Source of the DNA: Nitrososphaeria archaeon
GTDB lineage: Archaea > Thermoproteota > Nitrososphaeria > Geothermarchaeales > JDFR-13
Direction of reading: 5' to 3'
Length of the DNA stretch: 64,000 nt
NCBI GenBank assembly: GCA_027078545.1
Contig: JALWXN010000001.1
Span: 22,312 to 86,311, forward strand
Shown: positions 1-62,252 of the stretch, in pieces
Position numbering within the stretch: position 1 is the first letter of the stretch
Layout of the letters: every line of letters begins with the position of its first letter
Notes under the pieces: generated by a model
What the model was told of the DNA's origin: nothing
The model's input: only the letters and a program-made list of their open reading frames with translations
Databases searched by the model: none
Translations under genes and position numbers: made by a program

Positions 1-349
1 CTGTAACCTCGGATAGGTATGCCCTCATAACTGTTGAGGCGTCCCTGATCCTGAGGTTTTTTATAACTATTCTCTTTGTCTTTGCCCACCTAGCCAGGTC
101 TCTGGGTACTCCTACGGCTCTTCCGTGGGGGATGTAGAATGCTGATAGGCTTGTCTGTATCTGGCTAGCTATGGATGTGGCTGCCGCTAGGGTTACTGCC
201 CCCTCCCAGCTGCCGTCGATGAGTACTGCTATGCCTCGTAGGCCATATTCATCCATATAGCTGAGTATATCCTCCCTTAGATCCCTTAGTAGATGTCTAA
301 CATCGTTTCTACTTGTGAGTCTCCTAGCCCCGCTGGTGGGGATGGACAT
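1..349 (-). CDS. NAD synthetase (NadE)-like protein, N-terminal part, degenerate PP-loop; runs off the window
   Basis: Manual translation from ATG 349: MSIPTSGARRLTSRNDVRHLLRDLREDILSYMDEYGLRGIAVLIDGSWEGAVTLAAA..., open to base 1. Resembles the NadE N-terminus and starts 2 nt after pncB. Confidence 0.55.
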   Translation of the reverse strand, partial: MSIPTSGARRLTSRNDVRHLLRDLREDILSYMDEYGLRGIAVLIDGSWEGAVTLAAATSIASQIQTSLSAFYIPHGRAVGVPRDLARWAKTKRIVIKNLRIRDASTVMRAYLSEVT

Positions 350-350
350 C

Positions 351-1574
351 TTAGTCTCCCCACCCGAGGGACTTGATCCTCTCGAGCTGTCTCAGTACCC
401 TCTTCCTCACTATATGTGGCATCTCCTCCGGTGGTATATCCTCCTGTAGTATCTTCTCACCATTCTTTATGGCTGTCACCAGCATCTTCTCCATCTCTCC
501 CCCGCAGCGTGGGCATCTCCCCACCTTTCCGCTCCTTGGGAGTACTAGGTATTCATAGCATTCCCTGCATCTATAGACCTCCTTGACGCCGCTGAACTTA
601 CCCCTCTTGGCTATTGGCTTGTTGTTGAGCTGTACTATGTCGAGGGCGAAGTCGACTATCTTGGCGTTTGAGAGGCTTGCTCCCACGCCGTATCCATCCA
701 CTGGTGCGTCTCCAAGCCTCTTCACGAGCTCGATATCCACGCCTCCAGAGAGGAATATCTTTACGTCTCTGTATCCCCGTAGGTCTAGCTCCCACCTCAC
801 CTCCCTGATTATTGTGGCTATGTCACCCCTCCTTGAGCCAGGTGTGTCGAGCCTGACACCATCGAGTTTCTCGCCGAGTGTCTCGGCCGCCTTTATGGCT
901 TCGGTCTTCTCGTCAGCGAATGTGTCTATCAGGGCTATCCTGGGTACGTCTCTCTCCACGTGTCTGTCGAAGGCTTTCCATGCCTCCTCCTGGCTCCCCA
1001 TGATTATCACTAATGCGTGTGGCATGGTTCCCATCGGCTTCATCCCGAGTATCTTGGCGCTTAGTATGGAGGAGACCCCGTCGAACCCACCTATGTATGC
1101 GGCGTAGTCGAGCATCGGGGTTATTGCTGGGTGCATCCTCCGGGCCCCGAATGCTAGGAGTGTCTTGTCCCATGCATGGTATCTTAGGTGGGCCGCGTAT
1201 GTGGCTACCCCGGTGGCTTGGCTCAGTAGTCCTAGGAGTGGGGTCTCGTAGATGGCGAAGTCGATGTATCTGCCTGAGATGTATCCGATGGGTACGCGTA
1301 TCCCGTTGTAGTCATATGGCTTGAAGAGGGTGCCCTCCGGCAGGATCCTGAGGGTTATGGGTAGCCCTTCTAAGAGGTTTATGGCTTCATACGTCCCGGC
1401 GAGTATGCCCCATGTGAATCCGTATGGTAGTCCTCCCGAGGTTATCTCCATATCGACTTGTGCCTCTCCCCTACCCTCCTTCTTTAGTATGTCTACTGTG
1501 CGGATGAAGTAGATGTCTGTCGTCCCACCCCTCTTGATCTCACTCTGGGTGGCTACTAGGAATCTCCTATCCAT
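351..1574 (-). CDS. pncB: Nicotinate phosphoribosyltransferase
   Basis: TDIYF, FGARR, GTMPHA, GVRLDTPGSRRG and SGG motifs; archaeal-type C-terminal CxxC..CxxC. Confidence 0.93.
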   Translation of the reverse strand: MDRRFLVATQSEIKRGGTTDIYFIRTVDILKKEGRGEAQVDMEITSGGLPYGFTWGILAGTYEAINLLEGLPITLRILPEGTLFKPYDYNGIRVPIGYISGRYIDFAIYETPLLGLLSQATGVATYAAHLRYHAWDKTLLAFGARRMHPAITPMLDYAAYIGGFDGVSSILSAKILGMKPMGTMPHALVIIMGSQEEAWKAFDRHVERDVPRIALIDTFADEKTEAIKAAETLGEKLDGVRLDTPGSRRGDIATIIREVRWELDLRGYRDVKIFLSGGVDIELVKRLGDAPVDGYGVGASLSNAKIVDFALDIVQLNNKPIAKRGKFSGVKEVYRCRECYEYLVLPRSGKVGRCPRCGGEMEKMLVTAIKNGEKILQEDIPPEEMPHIVRKRVLRQLERIKSLGWGD

Positions 1575-1596
1575 CTGTATGCACCGCCTAGATATG

Positions 1597-3381
1597 TTAA
1601 TTGGTCTCTAGGAAGTAATATTCGCCTATCTCCTTCTGGTACCTGTCGAGCCTGCTGTCTGGCTTGTTTATCCTTGGCCTCCCGCTATGCCTATCGCGCC
1701 TCAGGGTTACCCCTACCTCCTTGAGGAAGGTGTTCATCGCGTCTATCTTGTCCATAGGCTTTGTTGCGTATCCCCTTCTCGATGGTTCTCCCTTGAATAC
1801 TATTATCCTGTCGGAGACCGCGTCCACCATTATTAGGTCGTGGTCGATCACGGCTGCTGGTTTCCCGCTCAGCTTTATGAACTTGTTTATCGCGTTGGCG
1901 AGTACTAGTCTGTCCTCCACGTCTATGAAGGCTGATGGCTCGTCTAGTAGGTAGAGGTCTGCCTCCATGAGTAGCGTGGCTGATACGTAGAGCTTCTGGA
2001 GCTCCCCTCCTGAGAGGTCCTTCACCCTCCTCTCTAGTAGCTTGTATAGGTTGAGGGGTTTGAGTAGGTTGTCTACTGCCTGTCCTGACAGTGCCTTTGA
2101 CCCGACCTTCTCTAGGAGGAAGTCCTGGACTGTGCCTTCGTACTCCGGCCTTATGTACTGGGGCTTATATGCTATCCTACCCGGCCCCACTATTATTTCT
2201 CCCTCATCCGGCTCCAGCTCCCCCACCAGCATGCGGAAGAAGGTGGTCTTGCCGGTGGCGTTCTGGCCCACTACCCCGACTACCTCTCCATTGTATATCT
2301 CCCCATCCTCCACCTCTAGGTGGAACCCGTTGAGGGTCTTGCTCAGCCTTGTATACTTGAGTATTGGGGTCTCCTCCACCTTGTGGCTTGGCTGTGGCTT
2401 CTCGAAGACTATCTTCCTATCCCTGAACCTTATGTTGTCGCCGGGGATGTATCCGTCTAGGAATATGTTTATACCTGTCCTTACACTCTCGTTTCGGGTG
2501 AATATGCCGTAGGTGCCCGGCTCTCCATAGACTACTGATACCTGGTCGCTTACATAGTCGAGGAAGGCTAGGTCGTGGTCGACGAGTACTACGTACTTTC
2601 CTCTCTGGGCTATCTCTGTTATTAGCCTGGCTATGGCCATCCTCTCGAAGACGTCGTTGAAGCTGCTGGGCTCGTCTATCAGGTATGCATCCGCATCTTT
2701 TAGGAGTGCTGCTGCTAGTACGAGTCTCTGCACCTCTCCTCCTGAGAGGTTCTTGACGTCTTTGTCGAGGCTGTTCCCAAGGTTCAGCCTCTCCACCATG
2801 TAGTCTATCTCGCCCGTCTCGTCGGCCTTCCTGAGTAGGTCTATAACCCTGCCCTTCACTATCCTGGGGGTTAGGTATACCTCCTGTGGCTTGTATGATA
2901 CTCTTAGCCTACCGTCGTATAGGTCTTTGAAGTAGTAGTATAGCTGTGTCCCTGAGAGGTAGTCTAGGACTGCGTCTCTATCGGGCTCCTTCTCTAGGTT
3001 GCCCAGGTTTGGTATCAGCCTGCCTGACAATATCTTTATGGCTGTAGACTTCCCAGTCCCGTTCCTACCCACTATTCCGAGTACCTGGCCCTTTAGGGGT
3101 GTGGGTAGGCGGAAGAGTCTGAAGCCGTTTACGTCGTATTGGTGGATCAGGTCTGTCTCGAGCTGTTGTGGCAGGTTGACTATGGTTATTGCGTTGAAGG
3201 GGCATTTATTTACACATATTCCACAGCCTATGCAGAGGGGCTCGTTGATATATGGCTCCCCCTCTATGAACTCTACCGCCATTATACCCATCTTTACGGG
3301 TGGGCAGAACCTCTGGCATTCATGGTTACACTTGTCTGGGTTGCATATGTCCCGGTCTATTACGGCTACTCTTAGCACCAT
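1597..3381 (-). CDS. rli: Ribosome recycling ATPase ABCE1/Rli1
   Basis: N-terminal Fe-S Cys cluster, two ABC domains (GRNGTGKS, GQNATGKT, LSGGE), C-terminal RPRINK. Confidence 0.97.
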   Translation of the reverse strand: MVLRVAVIDRDICNPDKCNHECQRFCPPVKMGIMAVEFIEGEPYINEPLCIGCGICVNKCPFNAITIVNLPQQLETDLIHQYDVNGFRLFRLPTPLKGQVLGIVGRNGTGKSTAIKILSGRLIPNLGNLEKEPDRDAVLDYLSGTQLYYYFKDLYDGRLRVSYKPQEVYLTPRIVKGRVIDLLRKADETGEIDYMVERLNLGNSLDKDVKNLSGGEVQRLVLAAALLKDADAYLIDEPSSFNDVFERMAIARLITEIAQRGKYVVLVDHDLAFLDYVSDQVSVVYGEPGTYGIFTRNESVRTGINIFLDGYIPGDNIRFRDRKIVFEKPQPSHKVEETPILKYTRLSKTLNGFHLEVEDGEIYNGEVVGVVGQNATGKTTFFRMLVGELEPDEGEIIVGPGRIAYKPQYIRPEYEGTVQDFLLEKVGSKALSGQAVDNLLKPLNLYKLLERRVKDLSGGELQKLYVSATLLMEADLYLLDEPSAFIDVEDRLVLANAINKFIKLSGKPAAVIDHDLIMVDAVSDRIIVFKGEPSRRGYATKPMDKIDAMNTFLKEVGVTLRRDRHSGRPRINKPDSRLDRYQKEIGEYYFLETN

Positions 3382-3476
3382 GTCTATCCACCCCCAATAA
3401 TTATTCTAGGCCCCTCTCCCCCTGAGCCCCGTGTTCAAGACCCTTAATATATATCTATTCCTGGTAAATTAGTGGG

Positions 3477-4178
3477 GTGGTGTCCTGCCATATGAGTAGA
3501 GCAGGTGGTGTGACTACTAATCCTATCGATATGTTGAAGTGGAGCATCGACTGGATGGCTAGGGATAACAAGATATGGATATACCCTGTCCTCCTCTCCC
3601 TCATCTCCGGCCTACTCATCTATGCCCTGAGCATCGTCTTCCTACCCGCAGCGATCCTCCTACCATTCGCGATATTTGTATGGTGGCTCATAGTACTAGT
3701 GGTTAACCTGCTTATCCAGCTCGTCATATACGTCCTGATGGTCATCAGTGGTAAGATGTTTCTACAGGCCTTTACCGAGGGCTCTACAGACTTTGAGAGG
3801 GCTAAGAGGGAGGTCCAGTCCGCGATCGGCGCATATATAGTCGTAGGTATAATAGCTGTGATCCTCGGCGCCCTCATCATAACTGCGCCGCTGGGTATTA
3901 TGCTGGTTGTCTACTCCATCCTATACGATCCATCTAGGATCGCTGAGAACCTTGAGAGGGGCTTCAGGGCTATCATAGATAACCTCGCCCATGTACTTAT
4001 CTTCATAATCATCTCTATAGTGGCTGGTGCCCTACTATCCCTATCCGGCTCGTTGCTCTCGATACTCACCAACCCGTTGTCGACATTCCTGAACATTGCT
4101 GTGCTGGGTGCCTTCGTCTATCTCGCCGCTGAGTATGAGGGTCTAGGTGGGGAGGAGGCTGGTCCTGAGGAGGTCTAA
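3477..4178 (+). CDS. Hypothetical multi-pass membrane protein
   Basis: About 5-6 hydrophobic segments and an acidic tail; true start is probably downstream of 3477. Confidence 0.7.
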   Translation: MVSCHMSRAGGVTTNPIDMLKWSIDWMARDNKIWIYPVLLSLISGLLIYALSIVFLPAAILLPFAIFVWWLIVLVVNLLIQLVIYVLMVISGKMFLQAFTEGSTDFERAKREVQSAIGAYIVVGIIAVILGALIITAPLGIMLVVYSILYDPSRIAENLERGFRAIIDNLAHVLIFIIISIVAGALLSLSGSLLSILTNPLSTFLNIAVLGAFVYLAAEYEGLGGEEAGPEEV

Positions 4179-7581: not shown

Positions 7582-7660
7582 GGTGATAACCTAGGGGGTC
7601 GTCGGAGTATATAGATACTATTCTAAAAAACCGGGCTGGAATACTATACCTAATCCACTG

Positions 7661-8707
7661 GTGAATACTATGAGGCCCACCAGGGAAGTGGGGATCTACG
7701 GCTATGGTGCGTATATCCCTAGGTACATCATAGAGAATAGGGATATAGCTGATCTCTGGGGGCGTGACGCCACTCCTATAAAGTCTAAGAGCTTTCCTAG
7801 CTACGACGAGGACACGATAACGATTGCCTATGAGGCCGCGTTGAGGGCTATAGAGTCCTCAGGCGCCGATCCATCTCTGATCGGGGCGGTCTTCATAGGG
7901 AGCGAGTCTAAGCCCTATGCTGTCAAGCCTTCGGGTACTGTGGTGGCGGAGGCCCTAGGCCTGGGTAGGAACATATTGTCGGCCGACTATGAATTCGCCT
8001 GTAAGGCTGGTACTGAGGCTATGCAGACTGTTTTTGGCCTTGTCTCCTCGGGTATGATCAGGATGGGTCTAGCTATAGGTGCTGATACTGCCCAGGGTAG
8101 GCCTGGTGATGAGCTTGAATATACTGCTGCAGCGGGTGGTGCAGCCTATATAATCTCAAGGGTTGAGGATGGTGTGTTGGCTAGGCTAGAGGCTTCCTAC
8201 ACATATGTCTCGGACACCCCCGACTTCTGGAGGAGGAGTCTGGAGGAGTATCCCCGTCATCTCTATAGGTTTACGGGTGAGCCGGCCTATTTCCACCACA
8301 TCATGTCGAGTGTGAAGGGACTCTTCGAGGAGTATGGCTACAGCCCCTCCGACTTTAAGTACGCGGTCTTCCACCAGCCAAACTATAAGTTCCCTACCCG
8401 TGTAGCCAAGAAGCTGGGCTTCACTATGGATCAGATAAAGCCTGGGCTGGTGGTGGCCCTTGTAGGGAATACTTATAGCGGCTCGAGTCTACTTGGGCTT
8501 GCAGCCACCCTCGACGTGGCGGAGCCGGGTGACAAGATACTGCTCGCATCCTTCGGCTCCGGCGCTGGTAGTGACTCGATGGTCTTCGAGGTGACTGATC
8601 TCATTGAGGAGAGGAGGATGAGGCCCCCGGTCTCCAAGCTTATCTCTAGGATGATTCCGGGTGACTATGCGACCTATGCGATGTTTAGGGATATCCTGAG
8701 GAGGTGA
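7661..8707 (+). CDS. Hydroxymethylglutaryl-CoA synthase (archaeal)
   Basis: GSESKPYAVKP, FACKAGT (catalytic Cys), HQPN, GNTYSG, SFGSGAGSD. Confidence 0.95.
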   Translation: MNTMRPTREVGIYGYGAYIPRYIIENRDIADLWGRDATPIKSKSFPSYDEDTITIAYEAALRAIESSGADPSLIGAVFIGSESKPYAVKPSGTVVAEALGLGRNILSADYEFACKAGTEAMQTVFGLVSSGMIRMGLAIGADTAQGRPGDELEYTAAAGGAAYIISRVEDGVLARLEASYTYVSDTPDFWRRSLEEYPRHLYRFTGEPAYFHHIMSSVKGLFEEYGYSPSDFKYAVFHQPNYKFPTRVAKKLGFTMDQIKPGLVVALVGNTYSGSSLLGLAATLDVAEPGDKILLASFGSGAGSDSMVFEVTDLIEERRMRPPVSKLISRMIPGDYATYAMFRDILRR

Positions 8708-9864
8708 GCCTCATGGGTATGCCTGTAATAGCTGGGTATGGCTTCACCCGGGTGGGTGAGCATTGGGATAGGGGTTTGAAGGACTTGTCGCTGGAGGCTA
8801 TTGAGAAGGTCTTCGAGGGCATGTCCTCGGTTGAGATAGATGCTATATATGTGGGGACGGCCCTCTCAGGGTTCTACGAGCTACAGCTCTCACTGGCTAG
8901 CCACATAGCAGACCTGATAGCGAGGTTCGACGCATCTGTATCCAACTTCGAGGCTGGCGCGGCCTCCTCGGCCCAGGCTTTCTACAACGCCGCTCTCGGG
9001 ATACTCTCTGGGATGTATAAGGCGGTCCTGGTTGGTGGTGTTGAGAAGATGAGTGATGAGCTTCCCGCCCCTAACTATAGGGGTGTCTCACTGGTGGAGG
9101 ATAGTTTCCTCGTGAACTATTCGGGCATGACCGAGATCGGTCTCCACGCCCTCCTAGCAAAGATGTATCTCTCGGAGTATGGCCTCGAGGAGCCATTGTA
9201 CTCATACCTCCCGGTAAATGAGCATGAGAATGCGTCTAGGGCTGGGCATGCACAGTTTAGGAATAGGATTACGTATGACATGGTTAGGTCGGCATCGCCC
9301 GTCTCTGATCCCTTGACGATCTTCGATGTGACTGCTCCTGGGGATGGGGCGGCCTATATACTGTTGATGGATAGGGAGTATGCCGACTCGCTGGGGGTTG
9401 AGTATGTCAAGCTCCTTGGTATGGGTGCGGCTGGGCAGCCAGCCAATCTCTTTGACAGGGCCTCGCCCCTATTCTTCTCTGCCAGTTCGAGGGCTGTTGA
9501 GAAGGCTCTTGAGAAGGCTGGTGTGGAGACTGAGGATATTGGTCTGCTGGAGATGTATAACCCCTCATCGATCTCGGGCGTCCTCGTCCTGGAGTCTCTA
9601 GGACTGGCCGATAAGGGTGGTGCTGGGAAGCTATTGGAGAGGGGATACTTCTCACTCTCTGGTGAGCTGCCTGTGAACACCTTCGGGGGTGCCAAGGCCA
9701 GGGGTGATCCTAAGGGTGCCACTGCTGCGTATCAGTTGGCCGAGGCCGCTATGCAGCTCCTTGGCAGGGCTGGTGATAACCAGGTTGATGGTGCTGAGTA
9801 TGCCCTCGTCCACTCTATGGTGGGCCTGGATATATCTGCATATGCCTTTGTCCTGGGGGTGTAG
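8704..9864 (+). CDS. Thiolase-fold protein (acetoacetyl-CoA thiolase homolog) lacking catalytic residues
   Basis: GGVEKMSD, DGAA, VNTFGG..ARG.P.GAT; lies between HMGCS and DUF35; contains no Cys. Confidence 0.88.
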   Translation: MSLMGMPVIAGYGFTRVGEHWDRGLKDLSLEAIEKVFEGMSSVEIDAIYVGTALSGFYELQLSLASHIADLIARFDASVSNFEAGAASSAQAFYNAALGILSGMYKAVLVGGVEKMSDELPAPNYRGVSLVEDSFLVNYSGMTEIGLHALLAKMYLSEYGLEEPLYSYLPVNEHENASRAGHAQFRNRITYDMVRSASPVSDPLTIFDVTAPGDGAAYILLMDREYADSLGVEYVKLLGMGAAGQPANLFDRASPLFFSASSRAVEKALEKAGVETEDIGLLEMYNPSSISGVLVLESLGLADKGGAGKLLERGYFSLSGELPVNTFGGAKARGDPKGATAAYQLAEAAMQLLGRAGDNQVDGAEYALVHSMVGLDISAYAFVLGV

Positions 9865-9867
9865 GGG

Positions 9868-10251
9868 ATGACGGAGGTTAGTGACTGGAGGTTTAGGAGG
9901 TATAGGTATAGGCTTATAGGGAGTAGGTGTAGGGAGTGTGGTGAGACCTCATACCCTCCACGTAGGCGCTGCTCTAGGTGTGGAGGGGCTACCGAGGAGT
10001 ATCAGCTGCCGAGGAGGGGTAGGGTGGTTCACTACACCCTGTTGAAGGCCCTCCCCACTAGGTATAACCATTATAGGCCGTATTTCCTCGCCGTCGTGGA
10101 GCTCAGTGATGGTACTAGGGTTATCGGTATGCTTACCGATGTGGATGAGCCTAGTGAGGGTATGGAGGTCGAGGCTACCCTTAGGAAGCTCTATACCTAT
10201 GGCGAAGATGGCAAGATCATCTATGGGGTGAAGTTTAGGCCGGTGCTCTAG
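9868..10251 (+). CDS. DUF35 Zn-ribbon/OB-fold protein
   Basis: CRECG..YPPR..CSRCG and C-terminal YGVKFRP; third gene of the HMGCS-thiolase operon. Confidence 0.93.
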   Translation: MTEVSDWRFRRYRYRLIGSRCRECGETSYPPRRRCSRCGGATEEYQLPRRGRVVHYTLLKALPTRYNHYRPYFLAVVELSDGTRVIGMLTDVDEPSEGMEVEATLRKLYTYGEDGKIIYGVKFRPVL

Positions 10252-61985: not shown

Positions 61986-62252
61986 CTACTGCTCCTCTCT
62001 TGGGATGGAGGAGGCTGTGTATAGGTCTATCGTCATCTCGCCGAGGTCCATGGTGTACTCGGTTATCCTCTTGATGCTCTCCAGGATGGTGCTTGCTAGT
62101 ATGGGGCTCCTCGGGGGCTTGGACTGGAGCTTCTTGGCCGTGGCCTCTATCCTGGCTATCAGCCTCTTCCCGGCTGAGATGGTCTCGTTGGCCTTCTCTA
62201 TATCCATCGTCCTGTAGGAGTGCTCTGAGTAGCTGAGTATCTCCCCCGCCAT
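61986..62252 (-). pseudogene. 3' fragment of an archaeal PhoU-type phosphate uptake regulator
   Basis: DIEKANETI...ILESIKRITEYTMDLGEMTID matches the last PhoU repeat; only 88 aa; abuts AT-rich DNA. Confidence 0.6.

Follow-up and report, generated by a model that had tools for sequence, protein, structure and literature searches.

In the 64,000-nucleotide stretch of archaeal DNA analyzed here (the window), the gene lying between those for HMG-CoA synthase (HMGCS) and a DUF35 protein encodes a full-length thiolase-like protein that has lost three catalytic positions, yet the gene is under strong purifying selection. We consider it probable that the product is a pseudo-thiolase without the ability to form acetoacetyl-CoA, and a similar degree of confidence attaches to the suggestion that the HMGCS complex keeps it as a scaffold or CoA-site subunit that takes no part in catalysis, while other enzymes make acetoacetyl-CoA.

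The complex of thiolase, HMGCS, and DUF35 protein is the accepted explanation for how archaea overcome the unfavorable condensation of acetyl-CoA that opens isoprenoid membrane-lipid synthesis, and to our knowledge the channelling thiolase is taken to be near-universal in these organisms. If a conserved and selected thiolase subunit is indeed dead, this explanation cannot hold for the source lineage. Thiolase-like genes of this kind routinely carry the label “acetyl-CoA acetyltransferase,” with the result that metabolic reconstructions would credit their hosts with a reaction that the protein, on our reading, cannot carry out. The dead subunit would also offer a natural experiment on the non-catalytic contribution of the thiolase to HMGCS. 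In the literature searched, we met with no account of an archaeal HMGCS operon whose thiolase is catalytically dead, and the nearest published case is its mirror image, in which a dead HMGS accompanies a live acetoacetyl-CoA thiolase (ACAT) in bacteria (PMC12960953).

Loss of catalytic residues from the thiolase-like protein

The open reading frame at positions 8704 to 9864 (forward strand) encodes 386 amino acids and not a single Cys, as had originally been predicted and as translation bears out. Although true, the absence of Cys is weak evidence by itself, because Cys makes up only 0.6% of the long open reading frames in the window and about 9% of proteins of this length would be expected to lack it by chance; we therefore rejected it as a statistical oddity. 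The meaningful finding is the loss of three catalytic positions rather than the bare absence of Cys.

These positions were assigned from HMMER alignments that are free of gaps across the motifs. The two references were the Pyrococcus furiosus thiolase PFC_04095 (7YVY; E = 2e-67), which is the best sequence match, and the thiolase of the Methanothermococcus thermolithotrophicus complex (6esq_A; E = 8e-49). The motifs CxS, HDxF, and GHx are the signature motifs of archaeal ACATs (PMC12960953), and 7YVY retains them as CAS, HDAF, and GHP, whereas the thiolase-like protein does not. In place of EAACAS it has EAGAAS (positions 8950 to 8967, exactly where the original prediction had put it), so that the nucleophilic, acyl-accepting Cys is replaced by A86 (8959 to 8961). 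EVHD[AC]F has become EMYNPS, with Y285 at the position of the His (9556 to 9558), and GHP has become GDP, with D335 at the position of the second His (9706 to 9708). All three replacements had been read correctly in the original prediction. The His of the HDxF motif is essential: its replacement by Ala (H284A) leaves the archaeal complex unable to form HMG-CoA, and a related ACAT loses nearly all thiolysis activity when His is changed to Tyr (H294Y) (PMC12960953). Lacking the Cys that accepts the acyl group as well as the two catalytic His residues, the thiolase-like protein is predicted to be unable to make acetoacetyl-CoA.

Organization of the operon and its intact partners

The HMGCS gene (7661 to 8707; 348 amino acids), the thiolase-like gene (8704 to 9864), and the DUF35 gene (9868 to 10251; 127 amino acids) are adjacent, tightly packed, and all on the forward strand, and together they make up the gene set known from 6ESQ. 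Upstream of HMGCS lies an intergenic leader (7600 to 7660, forward strand) in which inspection of the sequence revealed the A/T-rich, TATA-like stretch TATATAGATACTATTCTAAAAAA; this leader is likely to contain the promoter of the three-gene operon. A putative ribosome-binding site of the thiolase-like gene, GGAGGTGA (8699 to 8706, forward strand, also found by inspection), overlaps the HMGCS stop codon, suggesting that translation of the thiolase-like gene may be coupled to that of HMGCS. Given the position of this site and the fact that related proteins begin MG.PV, the true start of the thiolase-like protein is probably the ATG at 8713, which would give a product of 383 amino acids. The DUF35 open reading frame begins 3 nt past the thiolase-like stop codon. 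As for HMGCS itself, the longest open reading frame opens at a GTG (7661), but an in-frame ATG at 7670 (MRPTREVG...) fits the N termini of orthologs and of the 6ESQ protein better and may be the true start. Elsewhere in the window, G+C content falls to 0.40 between positions 62001 and 64000, against 0.47 to 0.56 across the remainder.

Both partner proteins are intact. HMGCS passes the NCBIfam equivalog model NF003274 (496.9 bits; cut-off, 244) and matches 6esq_I (E = 3.5e-110), and its catalytic tetrad of E82, C114, H238, and N270 is invariant across 17 orthologs. It thus keeps the catalytic Cys (in FACKAG) that it had been predicted to keep. It is the single HMGCS/KAS-III-like gene of the source genome, in which HMG-CoA reductase is also present. 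The DUF35 protein, made up of a zinc ribbon and an OB fold, matches Pfam PF12172 and PF01796 as well as 6esq_E (E = 7e-27), and its four zinc-binding Cys residues (C21, C24, C35, and C38) are likewise invariant in 17 orthologs. When the three proteins were submitted together to complex prediction, with an alignment for each, the score was 0.89, against 0.82 when an unrelated protein replaced HMGCS, so that the score is non-specific and speaks neither for nor against assembly.

Fold and selection

The thiolase-like protein is recognized by Pfam as a member of the five-layer thiolase fold (Thiolase_N plus Thiolase_C_1; PF22691, 112.9 bits; PF00108, 38.7 bits). Its AlphaFold2 model has a pLDDT of 92.8, and Foldseek superimposes this model on 6esq_A with a TM score of 0.94 (rmsd, 1.8 Å) and on 7YVY, the best structural match by E value, with a TM score of about 0.9. 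The model therefore describes what is predicted to be a full-length, well-folded thiolase body of the SCP2 type. Nevertheless, the protein misses every NCBIfam thiolase cut-off, the best match, PRK06064, giving 281.6 against 420 and AcCoTHIOL_METTL giving 219 against 600, whereas two live paralogs in the same genome exceed the PRK06064 cut-off (486.8 and 570.4).

The gene is not decaying. In comparison with a sister genome (97% amino acid identity; dS, 0.41), the dN/dS ratio of the thiolase-like gene is 0.043, and the same comparison gave 0.021 for HMGCS and 0.037 for DUF35; the thiolase-like gene is thus under strong purifying selection, and the relaxed selection that would have spoken against the original prediction was not seen. 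Conservation of individual alignment columns gives a similar picture. The HMGCS-linked thiolases that bear the Cys share 98 columns that are at least 90% conserved, and in Cys-less copies 57 of the 98 are still conserved to 80% or more, including those of GVEK, DGAA, and GGxKAxGxPxG, while 11 collapse, C86 and H335 among them. The ratio of thiolase to HMGCS divergence is 1.4 to 2.0 for Cys-less copies, against 1.15 to 1.5 for Cys-bearing ones, and reaches about 2.8 within the source genus, although the pairs are not independent and the comparison is descriptive only. Cys-less copies thus evolve somewhat faster relative to HMGCS, which points to reduced constraint.

Distribution of Cys-less copies

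Rather than the oddity of a single genome, as which it had first been presented, loss of the nucleophile proved to be a lineage-wide trait that is present in many phyla. In 40 relatives, the best match to the thiolase-like protein adjoins a DUF35 gene in every locus fetched and HMGCS in nearly all, and the order HMGCS, thiolase-like gene, DUF35 is maintained across the approximately 100 loci examined. The nucleophilic Cys is absent from all 13 genomes of the source family, where A, G, D, or E takes its place, and from all homologs of genus level in metagenomes (10 proteins), every one of which carries the triplet [AGS]/Y/D. The two His positions have been lost piecemeal within the family, position 285 being H, N, F, or Y and position 335 being N, H, Y, or D, and in the source genus all three catalytic residues are gone. 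A sister family, which groups with the source family at 99% SH-aLRT support, retains Cys/His/His, and the copies of Nitrososphaerales retain the Cys in a scan of named genomes.

Outside the source family, the nucleophile may be replaced by S, T, Q, H, or P as well. The three-gene cluster likewise contains a Cys-less copy in Bathyarchaeia (S, T, or Q at the nucleophile position), in Nezhaarchaeota/Methanomethylicota and in metagenome-assembled genomes labelled Njordarchaeota (G in both), in Caldarchaeales (A, E, or D), and in Chloroflexota/Anaerolineae (mostly D). The Cys is missing from 65 of the 147 best cluster representatives at 50% identity, most of the 65 retaining both His residues; these figures are indicative only, the representatives having been found with a family profile of which half was Cys-less. 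To the same indicative extent, the accepted explanation of the complex would fail for many lineages besides the source lineage. The gene tree, left free, requires at least four changes of Cys state, three of them forced by well-supported branches, although a single Cys-less clade is not rejected by the AU test (P = 0.10). Such non-uniform replacements, with His lost lineage by lineage, are what would be expected if the active site had been given up and not rebuilt.

Two further arrangements were seen among these loci. In three genomes of another family of the same class (f8; loci L032, L033, and L037 of genomes G021, G027, and G039), the HMGCS-linked thiolase has the triplet H/H/F, in which His stands in for the nucleophile and Phe for the GHx His; these copies are nested among Cys-bearing Nitrososphaerales sequences. 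In addition, the same genomes encode a live thiolase that is paired with DUF35 but has no HMGCS beside it (L034 and L039). In genome G017 (family f4; locus L025), the Cys-bearing match that ranks best adjoins DUF35, with no HMGCS found within the 4-kb locus, and the three-gene cluster appears to have been split in this lineage.

Possible role of the thiolase-like protein

Loss of three catalytic residues under continued strong selection is most readily reconciled with survival as a non-catalytic subunit of a complex. Archaeal HMGCS works in an assembly with thiolase and DUF35 protein, where the thiolase adds to the structure and forms half of a CoA-binding chamber that the subunits share. A dead thiolase might therefore be kept because HMGCS works in this three-protein assembly; it would serve solely as a structural or CoA-site subunit, and acetoacetyl-CoA would arrive from outside the complex. 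Given the residues lost, we predict that the three-protein complex makes no HMG-CoA from acetyl-CoA alone.

Comparison with the M. thermolithotrophicus complex (6ESQ/6ET9) brings out both sides of this proposal: the gene set and the fold are the same and all three proteins match their counterparts with the E values given above, but replacement of the nucleophilic Cys, the HDxF His, and the GHx His should rule out here both the thiolase half-reaction and any channelling of what it would have produced. There is precedent for keeping a dead subunit of the thiolase superfamily in such an assembly, since one subunit is inactivated in the tripartite systems PhlACB, MucABC, and PfACAT-HMGS-DUF35 (PMC12960953). 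In those systems, however, it is the HMGS-like subunit that has died, through loss of the E-C-H-N tetrad, while the ACAT-like subunit keeps its Cys, so that the archaeal operon, with its intact HMGCS and dead ACAT, would be their mirror image. They are also bacterial and lie outside the mevalonate pathway, whereas the present host is an archaeon that needs this pathway.

A thiolase fold without the nucleophilic Cys need not be inert, as the aldolases Ltp2-ChsH2(DUF35) and Sal-Shy(DUF35) (6OK1 and 9MYR; PMC12329534) illustrate; TbSLP (5AB4) similarly lacks the nucleophile. Ltp2 and Sal share with the thiolase-like protein both a DUF35 partner and a Tyr at the position of the HDxF His, which in these aldolases is the catalytic base. 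The active site might thus have been repurposed for Cys-independent chemistry of the Ltp2/Sal kind, with Y285 as base and D335 as acid acting on a CoA thioester, but we regard this as unlikely. Y285 does lie at the position equated with the catalytic Tyr294 of Ltp2 (YDHF versus HDCF; PMC12329534), and Y285, N286, and D335 do not vary among 12 distinct sequences of genus level that are 56 to 97% identical to the thiolase-like protein, so that the former active site is still constrained to some degree. The triplet G/Y/D is also found in the distant Njordarchaeota-labelled copies. In the source genus, however, 35% of all columns are invariant, which makes invariance at two of these three positions unremarkable and not significant, and the conservation of Y285 and D335 is accordingly no evidence of a new catalytic role. 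Across the family both positions vary, leaving no fixed set of residues, and Tyr, Asn, Asp, and Gln are all single-nucleotide neighbors of His, as drift would give. The Ltp2 match is itself weak (E = 5e-9). Ltp2 and Sal have YDHF and YDCY motifs and belong to steroid pathways, whereas the motif here is YNPS and is not conserved beyond the genus. The second catalytic residue is Tyr344 in Ltp2 and Cys304 in Sal (PMC12329534), and D335 may correspond to Tyr344, the spacing of 50 residues being equal. Against repurposing, too, the thiolase-like gene shares its operon with an ordinary HMGCS and not with a hydratase.

Other thiolases and the supply of acetoacetyl-CoA

If the thiolase-like protein is a non-catalytic subunit, another thiolase or another route would have to feed HMGCS, and the search for other Cys-containing thiolases that the original prediction called for was productive. 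The source genome contains five thiolase-fold genes in all. Two of these encode thiolases with CAS, HDCF, and GHP motifs (Cys/His/His), each followed by its own DUF35 gene; they are the live paralogs mentioned above and are 27 to 31% identical to the dead copy. One of these pairs shares a cluster with genes for SCP2, an acyl-CoA dehydrogenase, and a fusion of 3-hydroxyacyl-CoA dehydrogenase with enoyl-CoA hydratase. This cluster (C4:1105300-1111000; loci L003 and L120) is a compact one of the beta-oxidation type in an archaeal genome of 1.24 Mb, and within it the live thiolase lies at C4:1109220-1110374, the DUF35 protein has 188 amino acids, with a long N-terminal extension, and the fusion protein has 672. 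Every near-complete genome of the family has two live SCP2-type thiolase+DUF35 pairs, and each family genome with a dead copy has at least one live paralog, the exception being a fragment of 0.7 Mb. The sister-family genome, by comparison, has one thiolase only, the HMGCS-linked type that retains Cys/His/His.

The presence of two live pairs in every near-complete family genome also lends some support to the idea that the dead subunit pairs with a live paralogous thiolase, forming a mixed dimer or taking part in a swapped complex, and so preserves channelling into HMGCS. The low identity of the live paralogs to the dead copy, their own DUF35 partners, and their degradative contexts make such an arrangement improbable. 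The view of the gene as a pseudogene in decay, or of its residue changes as assembly or sequencing artefacts, as might be raised for a metagenome-type assembly in 11 contigs, is effectively refuted by its intact frame, low dN/dS, and confident AlphaFold2 model, by the Cys loss throughout the family, and by recurrence of the same substitutions in independent assemblies and in the 10 metagenome proteins.

We return, then, to an HMGCS partner that takes no part in catalysis. Supply of acetoacetyl-CoA by another enzyme is plausible in view of the two Cys/His/His thiolase+DUF35 pairs and the 3-hydroxyacyl-CoA dehydrogenase elsewhere in the genome. Acetoacetyl-CoA is an intermediate of beta-oxidation, and candidate sources would be either of the two pairs or the beta-oxidation cluster around one of them, in which 3-hydroxybutyryl-CoA could be oxidized. 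Among other routes, a malonyl-CoA-dependent acetoacetyl-CoA synthase of the NphT7 type was considered and rejected, since the source genome, which is 92% complete, yielded no carboxyltransferase and no KAS-III-like gene besides HMGCS. Neither acetyl-CoA carboxylase nor a family-I CoA transferase was found in this 92%-complete genome, and no bacterial-type thiolase II was found among its five thiolase-fold genes; at this level of completeness, the genome may still encode some other route to acetoacetyl-CoA.

More tentatively, the same pattern may extend to whole lineages of archaea and bacteria. Geothermarchaeota, Bathyarchaeia, Nezhaarchaeota/Methanomethylicota, Caldarchaeales, and Anaerolineae might all start the mevalonate pathway without a channelling thiolase, with lipid precursors fed by metabolism of the beta-oxidation type and not by condensation of acetyl-CoA within the complex. 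The dead subunit would then be a dedicated acetoacetyl-CoA-capturing or CoA-site subunit and, in the source genus, perhaps a Cys-independent catalyst based on Tyr and Asp. We think this broader scenario possible, though rather doubtful.

The remaining two thiolase-fold genes of the source genome form a Cys-less pair of the PRK06066/PRK06065 type, followed by two DUF35 genes, in a four-gene cluster (C4:715559-718400; L004, positions 194 to 3504) that is kept in most genomes of the source family. The first protein is PRK06066-like but falls below the cut-off of that model (393.5 bits), and the second exceeds the cut-off of PRK06065 (715.6 bits). Their motifs read GGDG/VDDRF/GYP and GGTG/VYDPF/GNP, respectively, and the YDPF of the second resembles the YD[HC]F of thiolase-fold aldolases.
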